The translations under genes and the position numbers were made by a program. A DNA stretch of 64,000 bases from Phoronis australis (taxonomy: Eukaryota; Animalia; Phoronida): contig NMRA01000188.1 in assembly GCA_002633005.1 (NCBI GenBank), forward strand, positions 356,921 to 420,920, written 5' to 3'. Of the stretch, positions 4,119-63,759 are shown in pieces; the first letter of the stretch is position 1; every line of letters starts with the position of its first letter. The notes beneath the pieces were generated by a model. It searched no databases. It was not told the DNA's origin and worked only from the letters and a program-made list of their open reading frames with translations.

Positions 4119-4322
4119 GATGAACTATTGATTTGGTCACTGCACGAACACTGAGCCTGACACTTCAGTCGACCTTGGTAACAATAGATATTGTTCCCCG
4201 AGACCCATTCTAGACCGGGATCCCAGAGCTTTTTTGGGCATGAAAAGGTAACCAATTATCTTTGGTGCCACAGTGCTCTATGGGTATCCTGATGCTTGGA
4301 AATGGCCGTCTGGCAGGTTCGN

Positions 4323-5700
4323 GTACAGCCTAATTCTTTTATTCGTGTGCCGTCAGTACATAGACAAACCCGTAAACTGAAATAAACAAAACCCTGAGAC
4401 ACTACTACGAAATATAATACAAGCACAGGCAGTGACAATATATACAAAACCGTTATTTACATCAACGAAGAAAATGTACAAGTAACGAAATGGCTACATC
4501 AGATAAACTGAATCTGATATGAAAATACTATATACAAAAACGAACCTAATTCATACACAATTCTGCCGTGAGACCGTGACGCAAACTACATATCAAGTCA
4601 CGCTAAACTTTTACAATAATATGAGCTTGAAACAGACTGGTTTGTGAATTGCAATCTCAAGGTTGCACCGAACAACGCCCAAACCCTCGACACGAACCAC
4701 GAAGGACGAAATACGGCAAACTAAATAAAGCGAAAATACTGAAATTACACGGGACACGAGAGAATGCATTGCACAAACAAGAATATAACAATAAGCAAAA
4801 GAACAATACTTACATCATGAAAACCCTGCAATCTCGACGACGAAACCAATGACATGCATACACTGCACACAGATAAATACGAAATACGAATGAATGGAAC
4901 TGGTGGGTAAAACGCTTTTAAATGTCAGTACCACGTGACAAGTTCACAATCTGGGGGGTACTTGAAAATGAGTACAACAGGAAACAATACTTAATATACA
5001 CAGGCNATTCTACGTACAGCATAATTCTTTTATTCGTGTGCCGTCAGTACATAGACAAACCCGTAAACTGAAATAAACAAAATCCTGAGTCACTACTACG
5101 AAATATAATACAAGCACGGGCAGTGACAATATATACAAAACCGTCATTTACATCAACGAAGAAAATGTACAAGTAACGAAATGATGGCTATATCAGATAA
5201 ACTGAATCTTATATGAAAATACTATATACAAAAACGAACCTAATTTATACACAATTCTCCCGTGAGAGCGTGACGCAAACTAGATATCAAGTCACGCTAA
5301 ACTTTTACGATAATATGAGCTAGAAACAGACTGGTTTGTGAATTGCAATCTCGAGGTCGCAGCGAACAACGCCCAAACCCTCGACACGAACCACAAAGGA
5401 CGAAATACGGCGAAGTAACTAAAGCGAAATTACTGAAACACGGGACACGAGAGAATGCATTGCACAAACCAGAATATAACGATAAGCAAAAGAACACTAC
5501 TTACATCATGAAACCCTGCAATCTCGACGATGAAAACAATGAGATGCATACACTGCACACAGATACGAAATACGAATGAATGGAACTGGCGGGTAAAACG
5601 CTTTTAAATGTCAGTACCACGTGACAAGTTCACAATCTGGGGGGTACTTGAAAATGAGTACAACAGGAAACAATACTTAATATACATAGGCAATATGAAT
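4323..5700 (-). repeat. Two near-identical ~690-bp copies upstream of BEL gag; probable 5' LTR/leader assembled twice
   Basis: 4323-5005 is repeated at about 5013-5690, separated by a single n. A minus-strand AATAAA lies near the gag-proximal end. The LTR termini and PBS could not be resolved. Confidence 0.5.
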
Positions 5701-9358: not shown

Positions 9359-9924
9359 TTAAAAGTGCCACCGTTGATGGCAGCTCCGGCGAATATGCCT
9401 GTTGTAGCATTGTTGCAGGTACGTTGTCGCTGTATAATAAATATACGACAGTCTGTTGATACAGCTAGCTGGCTGGCTACGGATTCTGTAGCATGGATGC
9501 TGTAGGTTCACGTGTTGCTGGGACGGTCGTCGTTGCTGCTCGTGTAATCACTGTCGCCGATAGTATCGGGTGCTGTCATGGCCAGTGACAACAATGTTTG
9601 ATATTGGCGAGGAATCGGTGCCTGAGTTGCAGACGATAACAAATATAGAAATGGAAAACTGAGACAGAACTGTCATATAATTAGCAGTCCTGTTCCTGAT
9701 GTTACGATTGAGACCTGGTTGCATGTTGAGTGGTATTTGCACTGCTACAATTGTATTACTTTAACCTATTTTCCGAATGTTCGATTATCTAACCGGCCAA
9801 CGACGTCGAGTCGACATTGACCTACCTTTTGAACCTTCAATGTCAGAGGTCATTGTTGAAGTAGTGCGGGAGGTGAATACGGAAAACATTAATACCTGGC
9901 CGTATTCCCCTCGACAGATTCAAC

Positions 9925-10500
9925 GCGTATGGGATAAAATGAAACTATTTGCCAGAAAAAATTTTGCCGACTGGCCAAAAAAATTTCAAGAAGGAAGTTA
10001 TAACTTTGAAAGTCATGACTGGAAAAATTTGTATTCACTATGTTTTAAAACCACTTTCGATCTCATGTTATGTACGCTGCAGTTTAAAATATCACATAGA
10101 ATACTTGCAGCGAACTCTTTTCCGAAAAAAAATGTGGACTCTGATGTATGTACTTTCTGCCATTCGCAAATTGAAACAGAAGAATACAGCCTTTTCAAAT
10201 GAGATAATATTAAAATATAGATAGAAGAATTATGATGTTGTTTGTAAAAAGTATCAATTTGATTATAGGCAAAAAACTTTGGCTCGCCCATAAGTATAGA
10301 AAATGAAGTTTCAAATTGTATTCTGTTGCATCTAAAGAATATTATTTATGTGTCTAAGTGTAAAAAATAATCCCTAGTTTCTGTCATATTCTTAAGATAT
10401 TAAAAATAGAATTTTATATTCAAAGAAGAATTTTATTAAATAATGGTAATTTACATGAATACCAAACCTGGAGAAATTGGCTAACCACAACTATTTCCAG
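9925..10500 (+). mobile_element. L1/Tx1-type LINE ORF2 C-terminal remnant (zf-RVT), probably the continuation of 6900-7580
   Basis: DWKNLY...QFKISHRILAANSF...SDVCTFCHSQIETEEYSLF. Confidence 0.7.
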
Positions 10501-10543
10501 ACAACATCCTAGCTAAACAGGGTGGGTATGTTGACGGGGGCAG

Positions 10544-10594
10544 GTGTGTGTGTGTGTGTGTGAGTGTGTGTGTGTGTGTGTGTGTGTTTGTGTG
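10544..10594. repeat. (TG)n microsatellite
   Basis: Visible TG run. A paralogous degenerate run lies at about 38625-38710. Confidence 0.95.
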
Positions 10595-11731
10595 CGGTGA
10601 GAGAGGAAACGTATTGATGTTCTTTTTCTTTGTATCAAAAAAACACCAAAACTTATCAAGAAACCGGAAGTCGAATACAAAGGCCATCGAGAACAATATT
10701 GTTCATACCACACCGGTGGTCGTCATGACAAGCGGCAGCATGTGACTAGCGAAAGTAAATAAAGTAATTTCAAAAAAATTATTAAGAAAATAAGGGTACT
10801 GAGTTGGGCGACCGCCCCCAAATCCTAAAGCGTTATCAGTATTTGTATTTTGGTTGGCTCGATGACTACGACACATATTTTATTAAAATACTTTATAAGT
10901 TTATATAAAGCCGTGAATAGTTAGTTTTATTAAGAATTTTAGTGTTGCCCACAACCCAGTGATACATAAGTTTGTTAAAATACGCCTTAAACAGTTAAAA
11001 TACAAAAACACTAGTCCCATAGCTACATGTATATAAAACGTCTGACGTCTTGTCGAAAACCTGGAACACTGAAAACGGGTACTGTTATGATGGCGATGAA
11101 CTTGTAACGACTGTCAAAATTATTTCAAACAATTTTATACAGGAGGCTACTGTTCAAGATGCAGTCTGTTAATGGGTCATCTCTAGTTGCCTCACAGTAT
11201 TTGAGGATATCACCACATCCACATCTTTATCGCTTTCTTCAACTTAGTGAAAAGCGTTATCCCATTTGTCCTTTCTCACATTGCTGCATGCGCCCAGCCA
11301 GCCTTTAATATGGGGCTCGAATTTCCGATGTTGTGGTCCTTTTACTAACAAAATGCGAGAGGAGTGGAAAAAGAACGGCGTACTACTTTCGGAGCTGTGA
11401 ATTGTACATTTCTGCATTTTTTAGCTTTTATATTGGACTTTTTGTCTCGTTATCTCGGAGGTTTTGTTTCTCTGAGGCGGACCTTTTTGTCCGCTTCGCT
11501 AAATTGGGGTTTCCCGCGAGCCTCCCCCACATGTGCTGTATTGTACAATGTTATTGTATTACAATTTCATGCTTACCCTCTCCCCCCCCCCTTCCCCGCT
11601 GAATACTACTCTCAGATTTGCAAATGCAACCCTAAATTTTTGCGCTTGTGACCTTGTTTGAGCCGTTCCAGGGGATAAAACTGAACTGAGTTCAGCAGTC
11701 TCAAACATGCGATTTTAACTCAGAGTTTAAA

Positions 11732-12394
11732 CATAGGCGGATTTAGGGGGGGCCCAGGGGGCCCGGGCCCCCCTCCCCNAAGAAAATGGAACCTGAGTGA
11801 CGATGAAAAAAAAACAGAAGCTGCTGGTAAGATGTGAATTTTAATCGAAGCCTTAGTGAATCACTCAGAAACTTGCAATACTCTCTTTGTCAAACCTTAT
11901 CTTAAGACGATTTCCAAAGCAATCCCGTCACTATTGCCAACACGAAAAATGGGTCTTTTGGGCATTTGAAGACTATTTCAAATACGAAAAATTTGTTAAG
12001 AATTGATGGCACAAAATATGAAACGTGTAATAAGCATTACAAAAAGAAGTAGGTTTCGCGCGCAAACGCTGTGGCCCATAAACAAGTAGGTCTTTTAGTA
12101 TGAGATCGGTAGCTATATCGTGGTGGTGTAGTGGTTACGTACGCGCGCTCTAAACGCAAGGTCGTGAGTTCGAGTCTTTGGTACTTGCATGTTTTCCTGT
12201 TTGACACGTTTTCCTTTTTTTCTTGGATAATACTTCAGGAATCAAGGGAAATGCTTGATTTCTAGAGGTAAAAACAGAAAAATTTCCCCCCATTCGGTAC
12301 TATGCGCATCTACAATCATGGTTCAGTTTGCGCAAATGCTTCCAGCCGGACAAAATGTTGGGCCCCCCCTTGTGATATCCTAGATCCGCCACTG
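11732..12394 (+). mobile_element. hAT/P-like non-autonomous element carrying a tRNA-like (SINE-head) segment
   Basis: TIRs are CATAGGCGGATTTAG and CTAGATCCGCCACTG, with a 7-bp TSD GTTTAAA. The element is absent from the paralogous site near 39630. An A/B-box segment lies at about 12121-12180. Confidence 0.75.
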
Positions 12395-12796
12395 GTTTAA
12401 ATTACTAATTTTCATTTAGCAAGAATCTCTCCTTCATTACTAACATTAGCCATTTTTCAGCGCATCATTTGTTGTGTCAAATAAGTATGGGAGTTGCTTG
12501 AGACTTGACACCGACAGATTTTCCTTTCAAGGAGTGTAAAGCGCCGACGACACGAGTTTATGAGCTCTTTTTAAATCATAACATGCACATGTCGTACCTT
12601 GTCAGAGAGTATAAAAAATTGTTGACTTGGTAGACTCGGACGCGTTTGCGTTTAGTGAGTCTATTGAATTGAAAAAAAACGTCGAGAAAGTTCACCTAAG
12701 CCTAGAAATATCACGTTAAGACGACGGCACACCACACAGTTAGGGTCAGAAAGTACATGTAATATAACTAGACCGGTATGGACAGTTCACTTCGCA

Positions 12797-13156
12797 TCAG
12801 GAGTTGGTGTTTAAGGATTTAAGGTTTCCGATATCTAGCCATTCCCGACCGTAAAACACTCCACCAACAACGAGACATAATACTGAGAGCAAAATTTGCA
12901 CAAACATGTTCTCGCCATTCGCGGTCTTTCTCAAGCTTCGCTTTTTTAGTGCAGAGAAAGTGTTACGATACGCTTCGATTGTGGCCTGGCGAGCACCGGA
13001 CCAATTATGAGGTCCCGTTAACCTGTACTGCACTGGAAAGGCAGGACCGTAGAAACACAGAAAGGCCAGAGTGGGGTCGCGAAACAGCAGAGACATGAAA
13101 CGAGGTTTGGCCCCGATGATGTCAGCGATTTGGTCGCAGTACGTCAAATTATCCAC
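12797..13156 (-). CDS. FMO: Flavin-containing monooxygenase, exon 6 (last; C-terminal membrane anchor)
   Basis: AG acceptor at 13157-13158. Translates as Y.DQIA..IGAKP...DP.LA...FYGP..P.QYRL.GP..W.GAR.A, then a hydrophobic tail and TGA. Confidence 0.93.
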   Translation of the reverse strand: MDNLTYCDQIADIIGAKPRFMSLLFRDPTLAFLCFYGPAFPVQYRLTGPHNWSGARQATIEAYRNTFSALKKRSLRKTANGENMFVQILLSVLCLVVGGVFYGREWLDIGNLKSLNTNS

Positions 13157-14041
13157 CTGAAACGAAGAGGTACGACCTGATCACCAGATGCCTGAGCTTC
13201 AGAAATGAAAATAACATTGCATAAACCACTTTTCTGGTGAAATCTAGTCAAATAGTGTACCCAGTTCACTGGCAGATAATGGAGGTCGTAAGGGGGGGGG
13301 GTCAATCACACGTTACGAAGAAAAGGCGGTAACGTTTCATTTTGGTTATATGCAGGGATAGTGGCCCTAGGTCGCTCTAGCAATTTGTTATAGCGAGATC
13401 GCATGAAGCTTTATTTACTTGCATCGTCGAACTCGTCACATGCGGTAAAATGAAGACCTGTTGGAATTATTGGACGCCACGTAGCGTTGTGTTAGTTTTA
13501 AAGGGGCTTTATCTGTTTTACGTCTGAAGAACCCATTTGAAGTTACTAGCTTTGACCAGAGCTTAATAAAACAACGTTATCCATTGTGTTTTGTGACTTG
13601 GTTACAAGTCGCCTGTTCTCTCCGTAGAGTGTCCGACACTCGTCGAAATCAAGGTCGTTACATTTACTAGTTAACTACAGTACACGTTTGTCATCTGTCG
13701 ACGTGGAATTCAGCTCCGTACGGTCAACAGAGTGTTACACTGCAATGATGGGGTTAGCAGTCACGAATCCGCTCATATGGGAGTATGATCTTAGAGTGAC
13801 CTGCCGATAGTGTCCCTTTAATAACACACCTTTAGGTCGATTGCTTATGTTCATCAGCAATTTCATTTCCCAGCTTTTGCGTTCCATTTTCATTTGGCCA
13901 ACGATTGTAACCAGAACAGCAACTGAAGTGAATTTTATAAGAATACAAATGCGGTGTTACTTAATCAGTACAGTGTATGTAGTGACCCTGACGCCAAATA
14001 CACATTTGGTTACAAATAAGAACTAAAACTATGTGACTCAC

Positions 14042-14295
14042 CCTGAACTTTTCACCACACTCTCTTTTCATTTGTTCTTTTGCGTTTTTGACGTCATCAG
14101 CCATTTGCCTTTGAGCAGGTAGCCCCATCTTACCACTGAACACTTGAGCTATCCATCGACATTGTAATTCAATAACGGACGTTAGAGATCCATTGCTGGA
14201 AACAATTCCGACAACGGCCAGTGTGTTGTGTTTTGACCGAAGTGGCCAGATGTATTTGTACAAGTTCAGTTCTTGTTGGCGTGTTGTTGGCACAT
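14042..14295 (-). CDS. FMO: FMO exon 5
   Basis: AG acceptor and GTGAGT donor. LYKYIWP...TLAVVG...ELQCRWIAQVFSG...LP. Phase is compatible with both neighbours. Confidence 0.92.
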
Positions 14296-19267: not shown

Positions 19268-20080
19268 CTGTAAACGGACAGGAGATGAAAGTTTCAATGG
19301 AAAATACCAGTGAAACACTGTCAGTTAGCGCCATGTACAGTACAGTGTTGAAATGTCGAAACTGTTCTTCTCAGACAACAGAGACCGCGGGTGCATGGAA
19401 CAGTCAAGTTAGGGACTCAGCTATGCTCCCAAAAGTAAATTTTCCGCATTGTAGACTTTGTCCTACTGTTATATTTTTCGAACATGTTATTTTGGTTGTG
19501 AGCTCTTTTTTATTTTGACACTCTCTAATAATGTATTTGAAAACATATTTTAACGGAAACCCATCAGGACTCCGTCCTTGCATCAGAGGTAATTCACGAA
19601 AATTTCCTAATTTACAATATGAATTCAGCGTATAATTTACTCTTGGCATGTACCTAAACTGCAACTTAACGAAGCAATGATAAAATGTCAGAAAAAGATC
19701 AAACAGTGTTTGCACAGCCCACAAATGCTTTGAAAATTTAAGGAAAATTGCCGGCTTAGACTCTGGGATTGCTTCATACAACCAGTTACAACGGAATTTT
19801 TGAAGCTTTGTGAAACCAATATTTAAAATCTTGCTTTGGAACTTAGTGGAAGATTCTCTGGTTCTTTTGGTTTTTAGCTTAAAATCCATTGGCTACATGG
19901 TACATGACCCAAGTCGTCATTGCCAGCGACAAATATTACTTTTTTGAAGACACGGTCGCAAACAACCCCCGCTTTTAGTTTCCCGTTTGCGTACTGGGCG
20001 GTCTCTCGCAACTTTCATTGCGTGGGCCTTTTTGTCACAGGACGATGGAAATTCGTGAAGGTCACAACTAGGGGCCTTAC

Positions 20081-20548
20081 CGATAACTAAAACTCGCTTA
20101 TTCTTAAAGGATTCGCCGCAGCGGAAGTCGCGGCTGTGCATCTGCTCTCCTCGAAACACGTTTTTTCCATCGATGAAAGGTGTAATAGGAATTTTGTTGT
20201 TTCCGATGGCCAAAATAACACGAGGAAATGTCTCTTTGTTTATTGACACGTCAGTTCCATCAGACCATTTCAAAGTCAGGTCCCAGTTTCCGCTAATTTC
20301 GTGGTCGGCGGATTTTTCTATTTTCAGTACTTCTGTATTTAGCTGAAAGTAGTCTTTCAGCCGGAAGTGTTTGGCATAACTTTCCAGATATTCATACATC
20401 AGATAGTGTGGCAGGTATGGCGGGTAGCTCTTTGGCATGGGGAAGTCGCTGAATTCCGTCCTGCACTTGCTGCTGTTGGTTACCAACGATGGGTAAAGGG
20501 CAGCCCCTTGGTTTGGTCGACAGGCATCTGAATAGTACCACACACCAC
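20081..20548 (-). CDS. FMO: FMO exon 2
   Basis: CAG acceptor and GTAAGG donor. GGVWYY, Y.SLVTNSSK, FSDFPMP, and the FMO fingerprint FRGEQMHSRDF (FxGxxxHxxxF). Confidence 0.95.
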
Positions 20549-21669
20549 CTGGAAATAATTTAAATCAATAAGACATTTCACTCCTTGTAATTAAAGTAGG
20601 CCTATTCTTATTTTAATTATTAATTGCGTACATATTTGGTATTGGATCAATTAAAAATGAGGGTGACCACTTCCCTGTTTTCCGAACGATCCCTCCTTGA
20701 GCAGACAGTAAAATCTAACAATCGCAAACCGGCGTTTACATGAGTGAGAACATAGACATCGGGATAAACACTATACCTTGGCAACGTCCACAGCTACGTT
20801 TTCATATCGAAACGCATTTTTTCCTTTTCAAAATGGTTACCCTTCCCATTCACAGGTGGGCCTATACAGTGAAACTGGCAGTTAATCATCTAACGCAACT
20901 TTTTGAAAAATGACTACACAGAAGAATGTGTTTTTGCAAATTTCATTTTTTCTGTGACCCTACTCGTGGGTATTAAACTTATCTTTGTGTAACTTTGAGG
21001 TCACGTCATCAAGTCAAAGTCTACTAGTAAATATGCTTAATCAGTGTTTGTTGTCGTACAGTATCAACACGTTCGTGTGGACGGAAAAGATGAGAAAACT
21101 CACGTCTTGACTAAAACCTTTAAAAATTGACACAAAAAGTCGCATTTCCAAGTGAAAACGTAATACCGTGGACACAGGCTTTAGTTGATCGAAAACGCCG
21201 CGAGAAAAAATGATCCATGTAATGCCTGCGGGCAATTTTGCATGCGCAAGAAATCCACATGAAGTTTTTTAATACCAGGGCGTTGTTTTCGGTATAGTCT
21301 AGGTACAACATTCAGTGTATCGAATAGCCGTAGCATCACTCATTTTTGCATGTAAAAGTGTAAAAATTACACATGGGTTCAAAAAGTTAGATCCCTTCGA
21401 AGTAGTAAACCTTTGGAATGGCGAACCGAATGGTAAGTAGTGGGGTGTTCCCAATCCCAAGTTCACGTAAGCAACTAAAGTAACACGCAAAAACATAATT
21501 AGATAAAAAATCATCAGGTTTTATGATCTCCGACTAAAATTTCTGTCCAAGTAGGTGTAATCACTCATTTAAGCGTGCCTGGTTTGAAAATTGGACAGGA
21601 CGTAACGAGAGAACGTTTTGGACCACATTACATCCGAATTGAGTCCCGTTATTTGCGAGCAGCCGCCAC

Positions 21670-37640: not shown

Positions 37641-40037
37641 TGTTTATACAGGTAGCTGGCTGGCTACGGATTCTGTAGCATGGAAGCATGGATAGGTTTA
37701 CGTGTCGCTGGGACGGTCGTCGTTGCTGCTCGTGTAATCACTGCCGCCTATAGTATCGGGTGCTGTCATGGCCAGTGACAACAATTTTTTGGTATTGGCG
37801 AGGAATCAGTGCTTGAATTGCAGACGATAACATATATAGAAATTGAAAACTGAGACAGAACTGTTATGTAATTAACAGTCCTGTTCCTGATGTTACGATT
37901 GAGACCTGGNNNNNNNNNNNNNNNNNNNNNNNNNNNNNNNNNNNNNNNNNNNNNNNNNNNNNNNNNNNNNNNNNNNNNNNNNNNNNNNNNNNNNNNNNNN
38001 NNNNNNNNNNNNNNNNNNNNNNNNNNNNNNNNNNNNNNNNNNNNNNNNNNNNNNNNNNNNNNNNNNNNNNNNNNNNNNNNNNNNNNNNNNNNNNNNNNNN
38101 NNNNNNNNNNNNNNNNNNNNNNNNNNNNNNNNNNNNNNNNNNNNNNNNNNNNNNNNNNNNNNNNNNNNNNNNNNNNNNNNNNNNNNNNNNNNNNNNNNNN
38201 NNNNNNNNNNNNNNNNNNNNNNNNNNNNNNNNNNNNNNNNNNNNNNNNNNNNNNNNNNNNNNNNNNNNNNNNNNNNNNNNNNNNNNNNNNNNNNNNNNNN
38301 NNNNNNNNNNNNNNNNNNNNNNNNNNNNNNNNNNNNNNNNNNNNNNNNNNNNNNNNNNNNNNNNNNNNNNNNNNNNNNNNNNNNNNNNNNNNNNNNNNNN
38401 NNNNNNNNNNNNNNNNNNNNNNNNNNNNNNNNNNNNNNNNNNNNNNNNNNNNNNNNNNNNNNNNNNNNNNNNNNNNNNNNNNNNNNNNNNNNNNNNNNNN
38501 NNNNNNNNNNNNNNNNNNNNNNNNNNNNNNNNNNNNNNNNNNNNNNNNNNNNNNNNNNNNNNNNNNNNNNNNNNNNNNNNNNNNNNNNNNNNNNNNNNNN
38601 NNNNNNNNNNNNNNNNNNNNNNNNGCGTGTGTGTTTGCATGTATGTGTGTGCGTGTATGTGTGTGCGTGTCTGCGTGTCTGTTTGTCTTTGTCTTTGTCT
38701 TTGTGTGTGGTGAGAGTGGGAATGGCTTGTATATTTAGTCTTTGATATCTTTGCATTTATGTCCTCTGTACCAAACACAAACAACAAACACAAAACATAT
38801 CCAGAAACCGGAAGTCGAACACAAAGGCCACTAAGAACGATATTGATCCTACCACACCAACAGTCGCCATGACGACAAGCGGCAGCATGTGACTAGCGAA
38901 AGCAAATAACGTAATTTCAAAAAATTATAAAATATGAGCTCTGAGTAGGGCGACCGCCCCCAAATCCTAAAGCGTTATCAGTATTTGTGTTTTGGTTGGC
39001 TCAATGTCTCCGACACATATTTTATTAAAATATTTTATAAGTCTGTATAAAACCGACAACAGAAGAATTTTAGTGTTGCCCATAAACCAGTGATATATAA
39101 ATTTTAAGTTTGATAAAATACGCCTTAAACAGTTAAGATACAAGACCACTAGTCCCATAGCTACATAAAACATCAATGTCTTGTCGAAAACCTGGAAAAG
39201 TAACAGATGCAGAGTGAAAATGTTATGACGGCGCTGAACTTGTAACGAGTGTCAAAATTATTTCAAACAATATCATACAGGAGACTACTTTTCAAGATGA
39301 AGGCTGTTCATGTGTCGGTTACCAATGATTTCTCTAGTTGCTTCACAGTATTTGAGAACGTCACCTCATCCAAATATTTATCGCTTTCCTTAACTTTGTG
39401 AAAAGCGTTAGCCGATTTTTCCTTTCTGGCACTGTTATATTATATGGTGTTGTTGTATTACAAGTTCATGATTCTCCCCCTCCCTCTTGCTGAATACTAC
39501 TGACTAGCAAACCCAACCAGGTCTCTCAATAAATTTTTGCGCTAGCGACTTGGTGTGAGCCGGTCCGACGGGATTAAACTACCCGGGACATAAAACTGAA
39601 CTGAGTTGAGCCGTCTCGACATTAAATCAAGGCTTGAATTAATCATTTTCATTAGGATGAATATCTCCTTCATTCCTTACATTGGTGATTTTTCAGTGCA
39701 TCATTTGTCATGTCAAATATGTATGCGAGATGTTTGGAACTTGACACCGACGGGTTCTCCTTTCAAGCGGTAGAAGCCGCGGGCGACGCGAGTTTTTGAT
39801 CTGTTTTTAAATCAAAATATGGCACATGTACTTCGTCAGCTCACTTATTGAAAGATTGGGACACATTTGCGTCTAGTGCGTCTATTCCATTGAAGCAAAA
39901 CGTCGAGAAAGTCCACCTATGCCTTTAAATATCAGGTTAAGACGACGGCACACCATGCAGTTAGAGTGGGGAGATACATGTAATTAACCAAGCGGTATAG
40001 ACAGTTCACTTCGCATAAGGAGTGGATGTTGAAGAAT

Positions 40038-42508
40038 TTAATGTGCTTTGAAAAGGTTTCCGATATTTAGCCATTCCCGACCGTAAAACACTCCACCAAC
40101 AACGAGACATAATACTGAAAGCAAAATCGCCATTCGTACAAACGTGTTCGCGCCATTCACAGTCTTTCTCAAACTCCGTGTTTGTATTCCAGAGAACGTG
40201 TTACGATACGCTTCGATTGTGGCCTGGCGAGCACCTGACCAATTATGAGGGCCCGTTAACCTGTATTGCACGGGAAAAGCAGGACGGTAGAAACACAGAA
40301 AGGCCAGGGCGGGGTCGCGAAACAGCAGTGACATGAAACGAGGTTTGGCACGGATGATGTCAGCGATCTTGTCGCGGTAAGTCAAATTATCCACCTGAAA
40401 CGAAGAGGCACGACTCGATAAAAAGATGCCAGTGTTTCAGAATTGACAATTACGTCGCATAAGCCATTTTTCTCAGTGAAATCTAGTACAATATTGTACC
40501 CAGTTTACTGGCGGATCTTGATGGGGGGGGGGCAACCACAAGTTTTGGAGAAAAAGTGGTAACCAAAAACGTCAACGCATTTTATTTTGGTTGTAGGCCG
40601 CCTTAGCAATTTGTAATTATATAACGAGATCGCATAAAGCTTTATTTACTCGAGTCGCCAAACTCATCACATGAGATCAAAATGACGAACTACTGGAATT
40701 GTTGGACGTCGCGAGGCTTTGGGGACATTGTCGGTTTTATGATTGAAGAACCCATTTGTTTTTGAAGTTACTAGCTTTGACCAGAGCTTAATAAAAACAA
40801 TGTTATCCATTGTGTTTTTTGACTTGGTTAAAAGTCGCCAATTCTCGCCGTTGAATGTCCGAAACTCGTCAAAATCAAGGTCGGTATCTTTACCAGTTAA
40901 ATACACTGCCATCTGTAGACGTACATGTACATGTAGAATTCAGCTCGGTCAACAGAGTGTTACACTGCAATGGTGGGGTTAGCAGTCACGAATCCGCTCA
41001 TATCTGAATATGATCTCAGAGTGACTTGCCGATAGTGTCCCTTTAATAACACACCTTCATGTCGATTGCTTATGTTCATCAGCAATTTCGTTTCCCAGCT
41101 TTTGCATTCCATTTTCATTTGGCAAACGACTGTAACCTAACAGCAATTGAACAATAAGAACTAAAACTATGTGACTCATCCTGAACTTCTCATCAAACTC
41201 CTTTCTCATTTGTTCTTTTGCTTTTTTGACGTCATCAGTCATTTGCCTTTGAGCAGGTAGCCCCATCTTACCACTGAACACTCGACATTGTACATATAAT
41301 TCAATAACGGACGTTCGAGGTCCGTTGCGGGAAATAATTCCGACAACGGCCAGTGTGTTGTGTTTGAAATAGTCCACTCATTTATACTTCATTTAAGGAA
41401 AACTGGAGATCACAAATCCTTCTATCAGTAAAGCTTAATTTTTGCATTAGTGGAAATTAGCTGAGAATGCGTACCAACGACACGACATTTTTGGATGCAT
41501 AGCCTGGGATAAGAAAATGAAGTGATCGGTATGCTCCCAGAACAGGGTTACCTAGCACTAAGTGAGATGTTATGAGTGTGTGACTGTATATTGATGAAAC
41601 AGTGCTCAAATGACCAACGCACTATTGAGACTAATTGTAAGCAAGCGGTTAGCCCTAGCTTAAAGTGCTTAAAACCATCACTTACGTGTTTTGACACCTG
41701 ATAACAATGCCAGCATCATTAAACCTTCCTTTATAGCAATGTATACCACAATTGTGAATTCGAAATCCCGAAAACAAGAAAATAGAAGAAAAGCAACTCC
41801 AGTTGAAAGCTTCTTAGCTCCACGGACATGAGCGTGACGTAAGGACGTACTCAGCGCCAGTGTGTCAGGATGCCGGTCCATCACTATGGCGCCGGGCTTT
41901 TCCTGTGTCCCACGGCGAGGTCAAATACTAATTGTCACAACCACCACAAACTCAAGCAACGCCTCGCCATGCCGTATCACACCATACACCATGGGAAAAC
42001 TAGCAGTAATATCTGAAGACTTGTCCCACCAAACACAATAGAGAATGACTAATCCTGTGATTGGTTGTCCTAATTTTACGTAGTATGTTTTGACCAATAA
42101 ATGCTCCGTAACTCGAAATCAGCTAATTATCATATCGTCAGAGAGAATTTGCAGGTGTTCTAATTTGACAGCTGATCGGCTGGCGTGGTTGTTTCCTCAG
42201 GGTTTTTTGATATGAAATTGATGATATAAGCACTTTAATAAATGAATATCGCACACGCCAATCTAAAGAGTTGTATCAATTTTTCGAAGATGATGGTTGG
42301 AAAAAATAAGGACATTAATGGGCGGAAAGAAGTACTATCCCTTAAAGATCATATCGATTCATGCAATAGTAAATCTTAAGGTACGATTACCTATCTGATC
42401 GTGTTGTTCAAAGCAGACCGGAAGCAGTCCTTCGGTAAGACACTACTTCACAGACACAATTACCCCAATACCGCCGCCCGCTATGGCCACACGCACACTT
42501 TTGGTCAT
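40038..42508 (-). pseudogene. FMO: FMO pseudogene (exon 1 at 42391-42508, partial exon 5 at 41180-41365, exon 6 at 40038-40394)
   Basis: Exon 1 has GAG>TAG and GGGIGG>GGGIGV. The exon 5 donor is GT>AT at 41179 and the exon has an internal deletion. Exons 2-4 are missing. Confidence 0.9.
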
Positions 42509-46119: not shown

Positions 46120-48282
46120 CCATTATAGGGCACCATAAGAGATCGTCCAATCAACAATCAGTGTCAGTCGTGCTCATCTCAATGGCAACATTTCTGTACA
46201 TATTACATAGGTACGTCAGGGAGTAGGAAAACGTGGATGTCTCCATAACTGAAACAATTTTTCGAAATTTGATGAAAATCAGTCAAGGAACTTGCTAGAT
46301 AAAGAGACTAACATGAAGAAGTAAAGTTGTCACTAGGGGCCCAGTGGTAGTCAAATACATCCCAAAATTCTCTTGTATCATTTCATTTGTAAAATTTCAC
46401 ATTCACCAAGGATTTGGAGATGCAGCAGCAGATGCCAGACAAAAAGACCGGGATGACAGCATAATGGGCCTACACACGCATGCTTGCATGCATGCAGTCA
46501 AACAGATCAAGGCAAAAGTAATCAGACAATATAAATCTTTGCCCAGCTTGACCGCTAATGACTGGTAATAACTATTATGACCGCTAATAACAGAATGTCT
46601 CAGCCACAATATTAACTTTCCTGTTTCCCTTCATTTTCACTCACAAACAAAGATCACTTTGACCACGAATTCTACTTTTGCCCTAGCTGTCATGGCAAGG
46701 AATTCCGGGTTATTTTGTCATGATACGTTTGGCTTGTACTGTATATTAATGTATACAAATAACCTGGAAATGACAGTTAAAGGGACACTCTTGGCGTGAA
46801 GTAATTTCACAGAAAATATCATGGAATCAAACTCACTAGCAACATTACTTCATAGCAATAGACACACCATAAGGTGCACAACAAGAATACAGTAACACTG
46901 ATGAATACGATCTACATGGATACTGCTCAAGATATTCAAACAGCAGTTCTATGATTGTGTCCTGCGGTTCTCTTTTGTTGAGAACACCTCACTGGATGGC
47001 TTTTTGACCAGTTTTCATGCCTTCATTGAACGCATCAGTTAAAAACACCTTTACAATTTCAGTCATTATTTCAGACCTTTATGCTGACTTCAGAGCCCAC
47101 CCCGCCCATTGTGCTGTATGACTCTCCTGCTGTTTGGGTACTAGCTGTCTGCATTTTTACACCTGAAAATATAAAACTCAATAAGATAGTATATGTTATC
47201 TAGTCCATTGGCAGGCTACCAGAACAACAATTGTCAAACACTCGTAAACACAACTCACACACCTAATTGTAAGCTGATCCCTGTTCACACAAATCAAACA
47301 CAGCTTTCGCAACCAATAAGCAGTTCAAAAACTCACGTGACTAAGAATCATGTCTATGACTCAGGGAACAGTGTGTGAGGAGTGTTTAATGATAACAAAG
47401 CTGGATGCAACACCAGGAGCCATGCTTTTTGGATGGGTAGCCATGCTTTTTGAATTCACAAAATGAGCTTACAAAATCCAAATGCTGTGGTCATGAGTGA
47501 GAGAGTTGTGCTGTTTGAGTGGTCTGATTGATATATTAATCCACGTCAAAAAAATCCAACCTAAATTTGTGCGAATGTCCAAACCATGGCTGCATAGGCT
47601 GTTGTGTAGCATGTTCCACAACAACTTCGCATTTCCATGTTGACTCTTAAGCCAACTTGGAACAGTCAGTGACTACAACGCACAACAAAGGTTATATGTC
47701 CAACTTATGGATTTGTGATGCCAAATTGAGTTCAAAGAGCATGCTGTTTAACTTCACCTTCTATACCAGTGACTTTGGCAGTCCACTTTCTCCCCACATC
47801 AGCGATGATCTTCAAGTGCTGTTAGCTGTTTGTCATGCCAGCCCATGCTAACTTGCTGCTTGAGTTCGTTTCGAAAGGCAAAAGTATTGTTACAGCCATC
47901 TTTTGGACACAGAAATATCTTCGTCCTTCGATTTGCTGAAACTAGTGAAAGGTCACAATTAGGATGCAACATGACATTCCTCAACCACTGGTTCCACTGG
48001 TTTTCAATCAGAAGCAGGATTCTCCAAAACCACCCCATCTCCAATCCCATATACAAGCAACTACATTTCTTGTTGAAATAGGTAACTTAGTTGTAAGCAT
48101 TAGAACACAAGTCCTTTTTAAAAATCAAGCTATGAAAGAATATTCCATTCCATCAAATATTTAACTTTTGTTTCAGACCACATAGACAGCTGAAACTAGT
48201 TCTGAGATGGTATGACTAATCACAGTGAGATTTCTGAGAAAAATCTATGTAATTGAATACAGCCCATACTATGATTTGTTAC

Positions 48283-48587
48283 TATAGTAAATGTCGACGT
48301 CAGTCTCGGCTGTGGCGTCTCTATGTTGTGATGTCCTTTTCGTGACAATGTTGGTCTTGGCCTGGTGCGACATCTAACGCCAGAAGAGCCCAGCCGAGGT
48401 CACACTCCTATCACGTGACGAGTCACCCATGAAGACCACGTGACAAGATCGTCTGGGCCTTCTGGAGTTCGCTGCCGTCCTGTGCGGACGCAATGTGAGT
48501 ATCCTCCAGACTTTGCTCTTGCACCGTGTTAATAGGCCCGAACTTGTGTGTCTGTGTAGCCGACCCCTTTTTTCATCTATTACAACA
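48283..48587 (+). repeat. 5' LTR
   Basis: TATAGTAAA...TTACAACA. Identical by eye to the 3' LTR except at base 2. Confidence 0.97.
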
Positions 48588-48589
48588 TT

Positions 48590-48606
48590 TGGCGTAGTCG
48601 GCAGGA
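48590..48606 (+). promoter_or_regulatory. Primer binding site complementary to the tRNA-Ser 3' end
   Basis: TGGCGTAGTCGGCAGGA is the reverse complement of the eukaryotic tRNA-Ser end TCCTGCCGACTACG-CCA. It starts 2 nt after the LTR. Confidence 0.9.
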
Positions 48607-48655
48607 GGTCACCCTTCCACAAAGGGTGAGGGATGCTGGTTCGCCATGCCCTCGG

Positions 48656-49615
48656 ATGTCGTGTGTGGCAAAAGCCCGCCAGCCACCTGGCATGCCCTTA
48701 AAGGGTCAACGTTCATCTGGGGCTTCGCCGTCCGCGTCCAAAGCTAAATCAGGACCACCTCCTGATTTAGCTATAGATGCCCACTTCCATCTGGATCGCT
48801 TGTCGGCATCCTGGGCTCAGCTTCATATCACTGAGACTAGGATGCTGACGATCGATCAGATGCTCAGCACCCAGCTGCCACGGGTTTCTCAAAAACCTGT
48901 GCGGTTGGTTGGTGGGATTGCAGTTTTCTGCGATGTGGAAAACTGGAAGTACGTTGAGGCTTCCCGTTTCCCACATGGCTGGAAGGCTGTGGTGGGCATC
49001 CACCCCAAACGGGTTGGATCAACGAATCCCAGTGTTCTGGAGCGTCTCCCCCAGCTACTAAAGGAGCCCTTTGTAGCTGGCCTTGGTGAGGTCGGTCTGG
49101 AGGCCCGGGAGGACTTGGCCATCCAAAAAGAAGCTTTGGAGGAGATGGTGCGAATATTTGCGGAGGTTCGGGCCAGCTCCCCCAGCTTCAAAAATAAAGT
49201 CGTGGTGATCCACCTTCGTGGCTCCCCCGACAATCCACGCTTCTTGGAGGGACAAGACTTCGGCTTCGACCTCCTGAAGCGCCACTGTGATGCAGACTTG
49301 GGTTTGCATCTCCATTGTTTTGGAGGTGCGCCCGAGGATGTACTCCGGTGGACGGGGTTCTTTAGAAACTGCCACTTCGGCTTCGCCGGTCACGTGCGGC
49401 AGTTTCTGAAGTTCCAAAACAAGGGGCTACAAGAGGTTCCGATGAATCGACTCCTCCTGGAGTCCGATTCACCGCTCCTCGCCATTGGGCAAGCCCCAAT
49501 GGCGCCCCAATACCTGGGGGAAGTAGCTATGGAGGTGGCGCAGCGTTCTCGTTGTCCGCTGCGTGACATCCTGGCTGCTTCCACCAGGAATGCCAGGCGG
49601 CTTTACCATCTTTAA
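48656..49615 (+). CDS. tatD: TatD-family metal-dependent nuclease (TIM barrel), intronless
   Basis: IDAHFHLD, VGIHPK, GLGEVGLE, VVIHLR, HLHCFGG, FGFAG, LLLESDSP, N..RLY. The first in-frame ATG is at 48656; the frame is open from 48560. Confidence 0.93.
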   Translation: MSCVAKARQPPGMPLKGQRSSGASPSASKAKSGPPPDLAIDAHFHLDRLSASWAQLHITETRMLTIDQMLSTQLPRVSQKPVRLVGGIAVFCDVENWKYVEASRFPHGWKAVVGIHPKRVGSTNPSVLERLPQLLKEPFVAGLGEVGLEAREDLAIQKEALEEMVRIFAEVRASSPSFKNKVVVIHLRGSPDNPRFLEGQDFGFDLLKRHCDADLGLHLHCFGGAPEDVLRWTGFFRNCHFGFAGHVRQFLKFQNKGLQEVPMNRLLLESDSPLLAIGQAPMAPQYLGEVAMEVAQRSRCPLRDILAASTRNARRLYHL

Positions 49616-50487
49616 CAAATTGTTAGAGGTGGTTCAGCATCCTGGTGTGCCTGGGTCATAACCTATGCCCCAGGTTTTCTCCTAGTCCCTTGGGTAATTG
49701 CCCGTTATTATCAACTCTGGGGCTGACTACGGTCTCTGGATTTGTGCCTTACCCTTGGTCCTAGGAGAAGTGTAATGTCCGTATTAAGTAATATAAGTAG
49801 TATAAGTAGATAAGTAGCGTACTGGTCCATTATTTTTATATAGTAGTGTTTATTTGTTAAAACTATATAGTATATTTTTGTTATAAGTTTTCATACTATA
49901 TACATTGTCTATTATATATTCAAGACTATACTTTCTATAGTATTATGTATTAGTTGTTACTATATACTTTATTTTTGTATATTTAGTTAAGTTTCCTATA
50001 TAGTCTATGTATGTTATTAAAGACTTTATCATTTTATATCTCTGTTCATCACTACTGAAGTAATGAATACTCATTTTAGGGCCAGTATGCTTTTGTTGTT
50101 CAGTTTTTTAGTTTTAAAAAAAAATGTATATATTCTCTCGCCAGGTCATCACCAACAATAAGAGTGTTGTCATAGCATAGTCCAGGAATTTTATGCTCCC
50201 TGGTACTGGTATTAGTGGAGCATATTTTCTTTTTTTTCTTTTTTAGTCATGTTTGACTACAATAATGGATATATGCTATGACTGTATGTCTAATTAGTAT
50301 GTGTTTTTTTTTGATAGGGGGGAGAATAGTTAGATAAAATTTTAAACAGTAATTCTTACTTCATAAGGTCATTCCTAATCATGTTACTAATAGGGTTTAG
50401 AGTCTTGTCATCTTAGGTCAAGGGTTTATGTTTAGATGTTGGGAGTGACGTTCGCCATTTGCTATAAGGGCTCCACTCCTTTTCTTT

Positions 50488-50501
50488 AGGGAAGGGAGGA
50501 A
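50488..50501 (+). promoter_or_regulatory. Polypurine tract
   Basis: AGGGAAGGGAGGAA immediately precedes the TG of the 3' LTR. Confidence 0.9.
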
Positions 50502-50806
50502 TGTAGTAAATGTCGACGTCAGTCTCGGCTGTGGCGTCTCTATGTTGTGATGTCCTTTTCGTGACAATGTTGGTCTTGGCCTGGTGCGACATCTAACGCC
50601 AGAAGAGCCCAGCCGAGGTCACACTCCTATCACGTGACGAGTCACCCATGAAGACCACGTGACAAGATCGTCTGGGCCTTCTGGAGTTCGCTGCCGTCCT
50701 GTGCGGACGCAATGTGAGTATCCTCCAGACTTTGCTCTTGCACCGTGTTAATAGGCCCGAACTTGTGTGTCTGTGTAGCCGACCCCTTTTTTCATCTATT
50801 ACAACA
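50502..50806 (+). repeat. 3' LTR
   Basis: TGTAGTAAA...TTACAACA, 305 bp. Confidence 0.97.
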
Positions 50807-53800
50807 TTACGTAGCTCACCTTCAAATGAGAAGTTATTAAGTTGACGTAGTCCTGGGATTGAATGGTGAACACCCTTTGCATTCCTGAGGCTGCAAACGT
50901 ATACCTTTGTCCTTGGGCATGGCTTACAACCTGGATACTGCCACATACAAACGTGACATACGGTGCTTTGGACAGACGATCGTTTGTGCTAATAGGCTGG
51001 CCAGTTCCTTTGTCTCTCACACTCCCATTCGTGACAGATTGCCAATCAACTCCCATTCTTCCAATTGACCTAATGCTCTGACACTTTTCAGGTATTTGAC
51101 AATATCTTTGTTGTAAGTAACCACAGCGGCTCGCTGGCTTTGCCATTGTCTTTCAGAGCGTGACCTATTTTCGTAAACCTCATTCGGTTTCTTAGCTAAA
51201 TGTCAGTAACGCGATATTTCGCTGAACGAACGCTGGAAGCAATTCTGGTTATCTTGAATAAAATTTAATATGATTTTTTATTACGATTTACTTCCAATTT
51301 GGATCATATTTTCATATTTTCTGCTTTGCAGCCCTCTATTGGTGGCAATATGAAACAGGTGAAAGTGGTGAAACTGCCTTCGCTCAAGTGTAAATTCGAG
51401 ATTTAAAAAGGTGCTGTTCACGAAAATAACGATACGTTGTCAAAGACGAGAGCTGTTAGCTATCACAGAACTCATGTGTGGGTGGTGTGCGTTTTTGCGC
51501 GCTTGAATTGCATAGGCCTCTATATAGGTCTAAATTGGTAGCTGGTTTTGGCCGTGGAGACAAGGCATTCAAAAGTACCTTAAAAATATCAAAATACATC
51601 ATTCTGAATTATTTTTGGCATTCTCAACTACAAAAAGGATAGTTGATTATAACTCAATCAATTTCTTATTTTTAAAACGCTCGCAAAGTTATTTAATTCC
51701 CATGGAAAGATAGGGCATTTTCAACAGTCGCGCACAAGGGGTTAGGCCATTTTTTCACCCGATTTAGTTATTCGTTATATATTTACAGAGTGACCTAAGA
51801 CAAAACTAAATTTTATATTTTTGTAGCTAATTCACCCCAAGTGATATATATACTATATCAAATTTAAAATTCGTGACATGTCATGTTCCCATCATAATAA
51901 TATTGCAAATTGCCAGACGTTCTCATGCAGTGACTCTTAAAAGATTCTTTGAGTTTGTAAACCGTCAATAGTTGGTTTTATTAAGAATTTTATTGCTGCC
52001 CACATGCCATTGACAGATACATTTGTTGAACATCGGCGTCTAAACAATTTACATGTAGATTTACGACTTACGAGTACTTCAAACACTCCCGCACCCATTA
52101 TGTGACTTGGAGGTACGAAGCTAAAGGAAGCTGACCAAACCCGGAGTTCGATCATCGATTTAGGAGGAAGTGGAGCATCGTGAGACGTGAGGAACCATGA
52201 GACCATCCCCTTTTCAGTAAACCGGTTATATATTTTAACGACAGGCTGCGTTCATGTCGCTCACCTATCGGTATTCACAGATACTACGAACTGGCTTCCG
52301 TGTGTTTTTGTTCACAATTTATGTGGAGTTTATCGATTTACTGGTTGTAAAGTTTAATTTGTCTCTATACTCTTCAGTGTTTCGAGTAACAGATTTTATT
52401 AATAATGTGTTTCATATGCATATGAATAGGTCTAAAATAAGCACACATTTGATTCCGAAATTTACCCTATTTTCTTGCAGTGCATTCTTAATCGAAAGTG
52501 TTGGAGTGAGACGCTGTGAGAGACAGCACCTCAGAAAATTGGACTGAGTGTAGTTTGTGCAACTTGAGGATTGGAAACACGAGGCCTGCACTGACTATTC
52601 AGGGCGTGGACAAAATGTGTGTGATGACTGTGCACTGTGAAAAATTCGGGGACTCATGGCGAAACTGGTTTTGTTTTAATTCCAAAACAACTAGAATGTT
52701 CAAGATTTTGTACTATTTATGAGTTTTGTATATATTTGTCACTAATATTCCTTTAAATTAGTATATTTAGTTTTTTATCATGTTTTCCCAACTTCACAAA
52801 AATTTAGTCGTAAACTCATTCAAAAAACACGAATTTTGCACTGCTATTTTATATACTGCACGTGCCTCATGGTGCCCCAATTGTGGGGCAACATGAGACA
52901 GCCTCGGTCTCGTTCTCACAAACATCTTCGCAATTTTGATATCGTTTGGGTACCTTTTTAGTACGTTTTGGATCCACGCCCAAGAAGTAATAGACGTATC
53001 GTCTCGCTATAGATGTATTCAATCACTTTATACAAGGTCCATGTGTACACGATGGCGAAGCTCGAGAGTACAACAGAGTGATGACTTTTGTGTTCATTGC
53101 AAGAAAAACATCCCCGTTTGGAACATGTTACGGAGATAATGAAAAAAATAATTCCAGCGATTGTGATGAGCGATGACGTGTTTATTGTTCCGTGGCGGAG
53201 TTACGTCACGTGAACACAGGTGCAAGAAGTCAAAGAATCTTACAAAACTGTATATAGCGATTATAGTCAGTGCTCGTAAATATTTTTAAAAAAAACACGA
53301 CAGAAACTAATAACTCTTAAATTGCTTGCCCATTTCTAGTTAATATCGTTAATTGTACGTAGTCGAGACCATTTATTAAAATTACTTCGTGACGCACAAA
53401 CAAAGGTAACTAATTACACTATACGTGATCTCCCTAAGAATTACTCGTCGTGCTTAAATGCCAGTGATCGATCGTGACCGAATGCATGAAACAGTTATAA
53501 CAGCGACTCAACTAAGTTCCCTAAATCTTTTACTTCCGTTCCTTACTCATAGGTGTAATCTTTTGCTGACATGTTATTTAGCTTAATTGTAATCTGCTCT
53601 TTGCCTAATGGCATCAGCTGTGTCTTAAAAACGGGTACTTTGTCCCTATATATTTTAATTGTTATGACAATTCCACGTAGAGTTCATTATCGATTTGTAT
53701 CAAAGCTAAATAAGTAATGAAATAAAAACAGCATAAGAAAAGACAATCAACGTTTCCACAAATACGCTGTAGACTTGGGGTACTTCGTTGATTCCATGTT

Positions 53801-60919: not shown

Positions 60920-61936
60920 TTACGAATATATTCTAAACTTGCTAAGTCTTCTAAGTAACAAGCGCAGCTGTTGGCGGAAAATTTCACATCGCCAGTTGTA
61001 AATAAAGAAGTTGATGAAACTGCCACATATTGCTATCCAATAAACTATGAATAAGCTGACTCTCACGAGGGAGCTGTACTCCTTGTGTGGGTCGTAGCCA
61101 CCTTCCAGTATCACGTGTATTACCAACACTGGAGTATAACACACTATAAATCCGCCGATGAGCAGAGCACTAGTAACAAAGTGTTTCAGTTTTTGTCGAC
61201 TGCACATCAACTCGTGTTTTATAACCTCCTCCGAATACGCCAGCGTTGATGGGATGGTGCCACGAATGGCCCGTCGGTGACGAGTGACAATTTTGCGCAC
61301 TTTCCAGAAGCACACTAACATGATTATCAGTGGAATGCCTATTGCTGTCGAAGTCCCTGTTACTTGAGTGGTATTACCGGATTGATAAGACGAAGCGCAT
61401 GATTTCACGGGTGACACATAGATGTAAGTTCTCCATCCTGTGGGTGGCTGGATACAACCCAACGCTATTAAGACAAATTGAACAAATATCAAACCAATTT
61501 GTTTTCTTTTTGTCATGTAGATTATGTAACGAAGACCCTTTGTTATTCTGAAGTATCGGTCCAGAGTGATCATGGCAAGAGTTGTAATGGATATGAAGAA
61601 CGCCAAAGTTTTCACTGTGCCGATGAATGTACACAATGCGTCGCCGTGCGGCCATATTCCGTAGTAGGCTGGTTCCACTGACGTGAAAGAAACTAAACCG
61701 ATGACTAAATCGGTACAACTTATCTCCAACATGAAGATACCGCCAAGTGCTTGGAGGTTGCTGACTGAATAAATAATGATATTTAACAGATTGACAACAG
61801 TACAGACTAAACTGATGCTGGCAATGACAATGACGTAAGGCCATCCGAACTGCTGGTCGCAAGGACAAACTGCCTTTCGGGCTGTGTCTTGGATAAGCGA
61901 GAAATTTAACTGCTCATTCTCAGCGTCCATCGACAT
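60920..61936 (-). CDS. Intronless rhodopsin-like (class A) GPCR, orphan
   Basis: Seven hydrophobic segments, TM2 Asp, WPHG..LC, LDRYF, CYTP and NFFIY. First ATG at 61936 (338 aa). Confidence 0.92.
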   Translation of the reverse strand: MSMDAENEQLNFSLIQDTARKAVCPCDQQFGWPYVIVIASISLVCTVVNLLNIIIYSVSNLQALGGIFMLEISCTDLVIGLVSFTSVEPAYYGIWPHGDALCTFIGTVKTLAFFISITTLAMITLDRYFRITKGLRYIIYMTKRKQIGLIFVQFVLIALGCIQPPTGWRTYIYVSPVKSCASSYQSGNTTQVTGTSTAIGIPLIIMLVCFWKVRKIVTRHRRAIRGTIPSTLAYSEEVIKHELMCSRQKLKHFVTSALLIGGFIVCYTPVLVIHVILEGGYDPHKEYSSLVRVSLFIVYWIAICGSFINFFIYNWRCEIFRQQLRLLLRRLSKFRIYS

Positions 61937-63759
61937 CGCGTCATCAACCAATGTCTAATGCCTGCCAGGGACTAGTGTTTGAATCCTTTGCTTCAGTCTA
62001 CCACGCACCTTCTGGTCACGTCAATACTGGCGGTTTCGCATAATTTATACGTAAACTGCAAGATGTGATTGACGTCAATGTATGATTGACGGTTTGGATT
62101 CAGCCCTGAATTGACGGTTGGTTGCTTGAACATTCAGAGACACGTCATGACAAGGCTTATGGACTTCTCTTGCACGTAAACACGTAGTGGTTTACTCAAA
62201 ATGCTTTGGAAATTTTTGCTGGCACTTAAGGAAGTGTACTGCTGTACATGGAAAATGGCCTATGAGGGACCTTCCTGGTCGATACGGCTCTCGTGGCTGT
62301 GGTTTGCAATAAGATTATGCAGTACTTTATCGACAAGACTGTACACTGAGAAAAATATCTAAAAAACTAAAGATTGTAACTCAGCAAAAGTATAATATAT
62401 TTTCTGAAAACAGAAATTCCGTAGAATCTGATTTTTGACTTAATATCAATTTGCCATTAATTAGGTCACAGTCACATGACCATGCTTTTTAGTAAAATTT
62501 AGTAAAAACAGAGGTACATTCAAAGAAAAATAACATGACCAATAAGATGACCAAATCTCGTACGATGTAAATGTTCAAGAGTACAATATCAATAACGCTG
62601 TTACAGTTTTATTCAAATTTAAGCTTTCCACAAAAATCATATTTGAAGCCCTAATTTGATAGCCCCTGGAGCAAAACTGTAACACTTTAAAAAACCATTC
62701 CTGTCAGCATTTTGGAGAATAGGGCATAAAGCATGATATCTGAAAGTTTTGTGTGAATCAGACCAGCCATTTCTGAGATACTGTGTTCCGAAGCTGGACA
62801 AAATTGGACATTTTGAATGACCTTCTCTGGTTGACCGGTATGTATAGTATTGCGCCGGTCGATGAGTGAGCCCAAAATGTTGAAATCAAACACCTCGGAA
62901 GCCCGTATAGATCTGTCATATCGACCACAATATTAATGGGATAGATTAGTTCTGCGAAATTCACTCCCTATTCATTAAATGTTCAAGAACATGAAAACTT
63001 TGGGTCAGCATTGAGCAGAGGAAAGTGGCGAAGGGGCTCAATTAGCTCGAGGCACCAAGAGAGGGGAGCTTCGCCAGACCACCAAAAATAAACAGTGAAT
63101 GTGACTTAAAGTTTCCTTTGCACTATCCGCCCCCCTCCCCACAGGCGGGTTTGAAGTGATGGCACTGGCTTAACCACGAGGGGTACAAAGTCCATCTCCC
63201 GCTCTGAACATTTCAATTTTGTGTTTCAAAGTAGCCATCTGTTCTATGCAAGATATCCTCGCACCGGTTGCGGACAATTTCGCCCCCCCCCCCCTCCTCT
63301 CCCGTTGCCAGTGCCTAATTTGGGCTACGCCTGTGGACGAAGGAGTAAGGAGCGCAGCTCACCTCTTCCGGACTCGAGCAGAGATTCTTTTTTAGAGCGT
63401 GCGCGAACACAATTCGTTTGAAAACTGTGGTTGTGACCCGTTGCGACATTCTTGACCCACCAGTGCCTTCGGACACTACTGTTCTCCTCTGCCGTCAGAT
63501 TCGCTCGCGTGGTCGTAAATTAACCGCCTTTGAACAAGTCGTCTGTCTTCTCAGGGAAGTCATAGGCCATGTAAATGTTTACAGGTCGTTTTAGTGTAGA
63601 AACGTTGCCCCTAACGCCGTGAGTGGGGAGACGAAAAAATGTCCATGTGCCTTTCAATTCATAAGCTTACGTTCTTTGAAATTTGCAATGTTTTTGAGGA
63701 AACGCACACCAAATAGCGAGATTTTTATTAACTTCTAAGTTTTTACATTTTCCTGTACT

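Follow-up and report, generated by a model that had tools for sequence, protein, structure and literature searches.

A young LTR insertion in Phoronis australis is most likely an internally deleted copy of a Ty3/Gypsy family whose ORF3 ends in a predicted TatD nuclease

A 2.5-kb unit bounded by long terminal repeats (LTRs) in the genome of Phoronis australis is a young insertion and most likely derives by internal deletion from a multi-copy Ty3/Gypsy family, the longer members of which carry a third open reading frame (ORF3) ending in a predicted TatD nuclease. The unit was found in the window, i.e., the 64,000-nucleotide stretch of contig NMRA01000188.1 that was analysed, which is animal DNA of ~40% GC. 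About 7-11 kb (gag, pol, and the front of ORF3) would have been lost from it, most likely during reverse transcription, and we infer the gag-pol of its own family from the sequences of relatives. The window copy itself is ordinary; the interest lies in the parent clade, which comprises many divergent families in bivalves and sea urchin.

Table 1. Features of the insertion (positions in the window)
Feature	Position	Strand	Remarks
Left target-site duplication, TTAC	48279..48282	.	Empty-site copies of the flanking repeat
5' LTR, 305 bp, TA start, CA end	48283..48587	+	
Primer-binding site, 17-nt match to tRNA-Ser 3' end	48590..48606	+	tRNA-Ser template in PMC3299991
Deletion join: 7 nt shared by the end of the tRNA match and the start of the TatD-side segment	48600..48606	+	Read ends
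ORF3 3' remnant: 59-aa low-complexity linker and TatD domain	48599..49615	+	
Predicted Group II (HxH) TatD domain	48773..49609	+	Ligands at 48782, 48788, 49088, 49211, 49313, 49466
3' non-coding region with AT-rich stretch 49771-50380 (27% GC)	49616..50487	+	Also covered by family reads
Polypurine tract, 14 purines	50488..50501	+	PPT/LTR join identical to full element L006
3' LTR, 305 bp, TG..CA	50502..50806	+	
Right target-site duplication, TTAC	50807..50810	.	

The hallmarks of Ty3/Gypsy elements are present in the window copy (paired LTRs, target-site duplication, primer-binding site (PBS), and polypurine tract (PPT); Table 1), and on each of these the sequence-only reading, which had reported 305-bp LTRs differing at one base, a TTAC duplication, a tRNA-Ser PBS and a PPT, was borne out. 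Its description of the LTRs as TG..CA holds for the 3' LTR and fails for the 5' LTR, because the single mismatch falls on LTR base 2. The terminal dinucleotide is required by the integrase, so the TA of the 5' LTR probably reflects either a base error or a substitution that followed insertion. The distance between the LTRs is 0.0033 (1 mismatch in 305; 95% interval 0.00008-0.018). Copies of the flanking repeat that lack the insert were found in sequencing runs X1 and X3, in which contigs join the left flank to the right (joints 48243/48249 to 50807), as expected for a true target duplication. Against the human tRNA-Ser template given in PMC3299991, the PBS agrees at 17 of 18 bases. The insertion target (window 47300-48282 and 50807-51800) is itself a multi-copy repeat with a depth like that of the element.

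The reading frame that had been described as one uninterrupted ORF is indeed open from 48560 to 49615; it is, however, truncated at its N-terminus, since it has no natural start, opens at the PBS join and represents the 3' end of a longer ORF3. The whole Pfam TatD profile was matched (1-253/253, 95.4 bits), and the predicted model (pLDDT 93.7) had only TatD structures as its top Foldseek matches, with a predicted fold at TM 0.72-0.76 to YcfH-type structures. The metal ligands noted earlier (HxH, E, H, H and D, following the Group II definition in the accessible text of PMC10085689) are all there, and so are all 8/8 active-site positions of the related elements. The distance from the join to the first TatD motif (59 codons) lies within the range of 37-282 between the zinc-finger-like domain and TatD in relatives, which would place the break near the end of that domain; the domain itself was not detected in the window by a profile search (best E 0.51). 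In agreement with the sequence-only reading, no similarity to gag or pol was found anywhere in the window by tblastn with the gag and pol of a related element as queries (E 1e-5), and since the pol order PR-RT-RH-IN is missing from the window copy, it is a derivative and not an autonomous member. In-frame ATGs at 48656 and 48692 precede the complete TatD domain, and overlapping out-of-frame ATGs in better context lie upstream (48633 and 48646); translation of TatD from this copy appears doubtful. The frame presumably owes its intactness to the youth of this copy and not to selection on it. The domain, intronless and well folded in the model, lends itself directly to an assay.

TatD had been regarded as the sole cargo of the unit, which is not supported: in most of the related loci it stands at the end of a long ORF3 behind a Gypsy pol. 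A homologue search of 1.84 billion representatives returned 437 proteins at E up to 1e-10 (a search with the single window ORF returned 1 homologue). Among the 150 matches listed of these 437, 75 are at least 450 aa long with a C-terminal TatD; named members come from Mya, Pecten, Saccostrea, Mizuhopecten and Strongylocentrotus or bear the label of a Sedimenticola metagenome-assembled genome (MAG), and 13 near-identical Mya arenaria proteins represent at least 12 gene ids. Upstream of TatD, a C-x4-C...H-x4-H motif plus helical domain of about 140 aa is conserved (P0002-P0151). This zinc-finger-like domain was found in 71 of the 75 long proteins among the matches listed, a count that is partly circular because its profile was built from 34 of these proteins, and it corresponded to no Pfam family in the 65 proteins scanned.

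The layout of the relatives, gag-pol(PR-RT-RH-IN-PHD)-ORF3(zinc-finger-like domain, linker, TatD)-PPT, was examined in 18 loci from two sources only, namely L006 and 17 of the 23 matches in one MAG (the six left out were three short contigs, one grouping with bacteria, one weak and one broken). L006 is a complete circularised element with a zinc-knuckle gag, a pol in the order PR, RT, RH, IN, PHD (Pfam), and an ORF3 of 712 codons ending in TatD, followed by the same PPT/LTR join as in the window; colinear pol was found in L190, L193, L197, L199, L201 and L203. The pol 3' end lies directly upstream of the TatD ORF on the same strand in 16/18 loci (the other two are L198, which stops within ORF3, and L204, with its scaffold gap). 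In these pol-adjacent elements the eight active-site positions are invariant (16/16), and the zinc-finger-like domain shares the frame of TatD in 15/16. PBS and TatD are 7.6 kb apart in L006, 10.2 kb in L193 and only 186 bp in the window. Matches of the PBS to tRNA are about 11-16 nt long in several relatives, compared to the 18-nt form of L325; a scan of 129 loci with ARAGORN gave no tRNA. Viral contigs yielded 5 weak TatD loci (25-30% identity) and 120 stretches with the 14-nt PBS pattern. L204 was considered as a second deletion derivative and rejected, as its RT fragment beside ORF3 sits at the scaffold gap. L192 and L194 have the same pol-end score (45.5% over 209 aa) and different ORF3s (803 vs 1021 codons), possibly by ORF3 exchange or through a shared collapsed pol. 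In the bacterial MAG (G001; L086, L189-L204), at least 16 contigs are animal Gypsy elements and presumably represent host DNA; NCBI lists the ORF3 proteins of these contigs as "TatD family hydrolase [Sedimenticola sp.]", which could create a spurious signal of horizontal transfer.

In a quick phylogenetic tree of 78 rows, the window TatD was placed with the ORF3s of the elements on one side of a branch with a support of 99, apart from 35 prokaryote rows, although its own branch is long (1.47). TATDN1/2/3 were not included in this tree; in the family profile comparison, which covered YcfH, TATDN1 and TATDN3, the scores were 127, 65 and 60 bits, respectively. The TatDs of the relatives are 25-40% identical to that of the window, and 17/18 of these relatives come from one MAG. 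With the Group II TatDs (YcfH, YjjV, TATDN2, TATDN3), as these are presented in the available parts of PMC10085689 and PMC10711561, the element TatDs share HxH, the two-metal ligand set and the fold; they differ from cellular TatDs in being only about 20-30% identical, in forming a clade of their own, in being encoded by retrotransposons, and in that their activity is predicted. The activities described for Group II TatDs are those of a 3'-5' exonuclease on ssDNA and of an AP endonuclease (PMC10085689), and R-loops are cleared of their RNA by TATDN2 (PMC10711561); the TatD mentioned in the accessible portion of a squid paper is the host TATDN2.

The nature of the deletion was addressed with reads of five runs (X1, X3, X5, X6 and X7; at most four samples from two studies), which are from close kin and not from the individual of the window (word share 0.38-0.41, fixed differences 1-2%; raw runs read to 18-19%). 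No read or contig of these other individuals bridged the PBS-TatD join, and the depth was 0 at 48578-48595 in 4/4 runs (171-base stretch); this does not make the short form a single copy in the genome from which the window comes. On the TatD side, reads began to fit at 48600 in all five runs, with loose ends before this position in one contig of X1 (depth 428), in 10 reads each of X5 and X6, in 4 reads of X7, and in X3 too; the upstream sequence beyond 48600 was the same at every listed loose end. On the PBS side, 9 reads of X5 departed from the window sequence at 48603. Since reads continue into other DNA on both sides of the join, the family copies hold more sequence there. Eleven contigs of X1 carry differing DNA before the LTR start, indicating several insertions of the family, and contigs with the TatD ORF had depths of 797 (X1) and 224 (X3) vs about 45-60 and 7-14 for minor contigs, roughly 15 times as much, where depth is not copy number. 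Differences among copies comprised 5 synonymous and 3 other changes in the TatD domain and 2 and 5 in the linker (50 rows of >800; too few for dN/dS). RNA reads lay thinly over the family copies in either direction, much as over the flanking repeats, and are not assignable to this copy. In window 48357-49715, RNA first mates were 2-3 times commoner on the + strand; the library type is unspecified, and in the usual stranded library such an excess would mean antisense RNA. The reads and the related full elements thus agree with the second option of the sequence-only reading, a deletion derivative of a Gypsy lineage with TatD as an accessory ORF.

The join suggests how the deletion might have arisen. 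Plus-strand strong-stop DNA includes a copy of the tRNA primer. The TatD-side segment opens at 48600 with seven bases equal to positions 11-17 of the tRNA-Ser complement, so that a pairing of 7 nt would be available to the 3' end of this DNA at an internal site; in sister copies, the agreement with the tRNA stops after 14 bases (9 reads of one run). During the second strand transfer, the strong-stop DNA would have paired by its 3' end with this match just before TatD and not with the PBS, a mis-pairing that would delete everything between the PBS and the internal site and regenerate the longer tRNA match. The two-LTR product would have kept both LTR ends, and the integrase that the parent had supplied to the particle could have inserted it. 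The short form may date from the very cycle of reverse transcription that gave rise to the insertion, and the helper element that had been invoked for its mobilisation is not needed; no amplification was seen in the runs. Retroviral deletions from strand-transfer errors were reportedly described by Pulsinelli and Temin in 1991; these and the window deletion alike are large, have an end at the PBS and show short homology where the ends meet, although the window case is deduced from a single genomic copy and not from a replication assay.

Alternatively, the insertion could have been full-length at the outset and have lost its middle afterwards through a microhomology-mediated deletion at the DNA level, an unlikely course of events that would keep the verdict of a deletion derivative and change only its timing, so that most of the weight it carries is shared with the reading preferred here. 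The short homology at the join is compatible with it, partial copies formed by microhomology are described for rotifer LTR elements (PMC5408684, in the part available), and a parent with a PBS of 17-18 nt would allow such an ordinary deletion. Yet one breakpoint lies exactly on the end of the PBS, the internal site has 7 nt in common with the tRNA copy as against only 4 with sister copies, and the near-identical LTRs leave little time. An error during reverse transcription thus remains our preferred explanation. We consider it improbable that the short form is a non-autonomous satellite family copied in trans, in line with the earlier idea of a satellite spreading a nuclease, and that it provides a free TatD domain from an internal ATG. 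All cis ends (LTRs, PBS, PPT) and both in-frame ATGs ahead of the complete domain would serve such a family, but the join was absent from all five runs (of other individuals), the two upstream out-of-frame ATGs have the better context, and the leader behind the PBS, which usually holds packaging signals, is deleted. TRIM/LARD-type elements are non-autonomous, internally deleted LTR derivatives which likewise possess LTRs, PBS and PPT but no gag-pol; the window short form differs from them in showing no sign of amplification in the runs.

Still less credence is given to an assembly artefact joining the PBS to the TatD region. It would account for the missing read support at the join, and there is a scaffold gap elsewhere in the window; however, an overlap of only 4-7 nt is far exceeded by assembler word sizes, both ends carry the matching target duplication, and the runs come from other individuals. 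Least credible, and largely refuted, is an origin from a spliced ORF3 message that was reverse-transcribed, or from a host TATDN gene as an LTR-flanked retrocopy. An AG at 48603-48604 could be read as a splice acceptor, but the join cuts inside ORF3 instead of before its start, and in the PBS-side reads departing at 48603 the onward sequence does not begin with GT. A one-off host retrocopy, named by the sequence-only reading as the outcome that would overturn it, is disfavoured by the grouping of the protein with pol-adjacent ORF3s (in a tree without TATDN1/2/3) and by the lower TATDN1 and TATDN3 scores.

Because the ligands are invariant across families that are only 25-50% identical, we infer that the ORF3 of the clade encodes a catalytically active two-metal 3'-5' nuclease kept by selection. 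As to its role, trimming of unpaired 3' ends, or of the RNA of RNA:DNA hybrids, during cDNA synthesis is a tentative suggestion, which we would rank ahead of counter-silencing or integration-gap repair. With a PBS match of only about 11-16 nt, as in several relatives, a 3' tail would stay unpaired at the second transfer; on the other hand, many Gypsy elements have short PBSs without any such gene. A bolder and somewhat more doubtful proposal is that a large, undescribed Gypsy clade of bivalves and echinoderms uses TatD in replication, where it might trim the 3' tail, clear hybrid RNA or destroy silencing RNAs, and that short copies with a PBS join could be copied in trans and supply free nuclease. 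No description of TatD in LTR elements was found in the literature searched, a scope that excluded Repbase reports, subscription journals and supplements.

The closest counterparts are Juno and Vesta of bdelloid rotifers, which, as far as the available part of PMC5408684 goes, share with the clade a Gypsy-like organisation, an ORF3 behind pol that encodes an enzyme instead of env, a nuclease with a merely predicted 3'-5' activity, and partial copies by microhomology deletion. The rotifer ORF3 enzymes reported there are a DEDDy exonuclease and a GDSL esterase, and ORF3 evolution within the genome is given as not departing from neutrality. In contrast to the DEDDy enzyme of that account, the clade has a TIM-barrel TatD and not an RNase H-like fold, fused to a preceding zinc-finger-like domain and with its active site invariant at 25-50% identity; it is also spread over bivalves and sea urchin. 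With the parent clade, the third genes of LTR elements that encode enzymes come to include two unrelated nuclease folds, and the evident long-term conservation in the clade points to a repeated demand for 3'-5' nuclease activity beyond what reverse transcriptase offers. The clade further accounts for the multi-copy "TatD-like" genes in bivalve and sea-urchin annotations and the "bacterial" TatDs in a contaminated MAG.

Elsewhere in the window, decayed and partly duplicated retroelement frames on the - strand occupy 1030-5700; they are presumably BEL/Pao-like, and one frame scanned against Pfam matched no family. A duplicated segment (9500-14150 and 37690-41290; 82-95% identity, about 27-28 kb apart) lies beside a 720-base N gap. 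An FMO-like exon was found at 19917-20564 (-) and a single-exon GPCR of the rhodopsin family at 60920-61954 (-).
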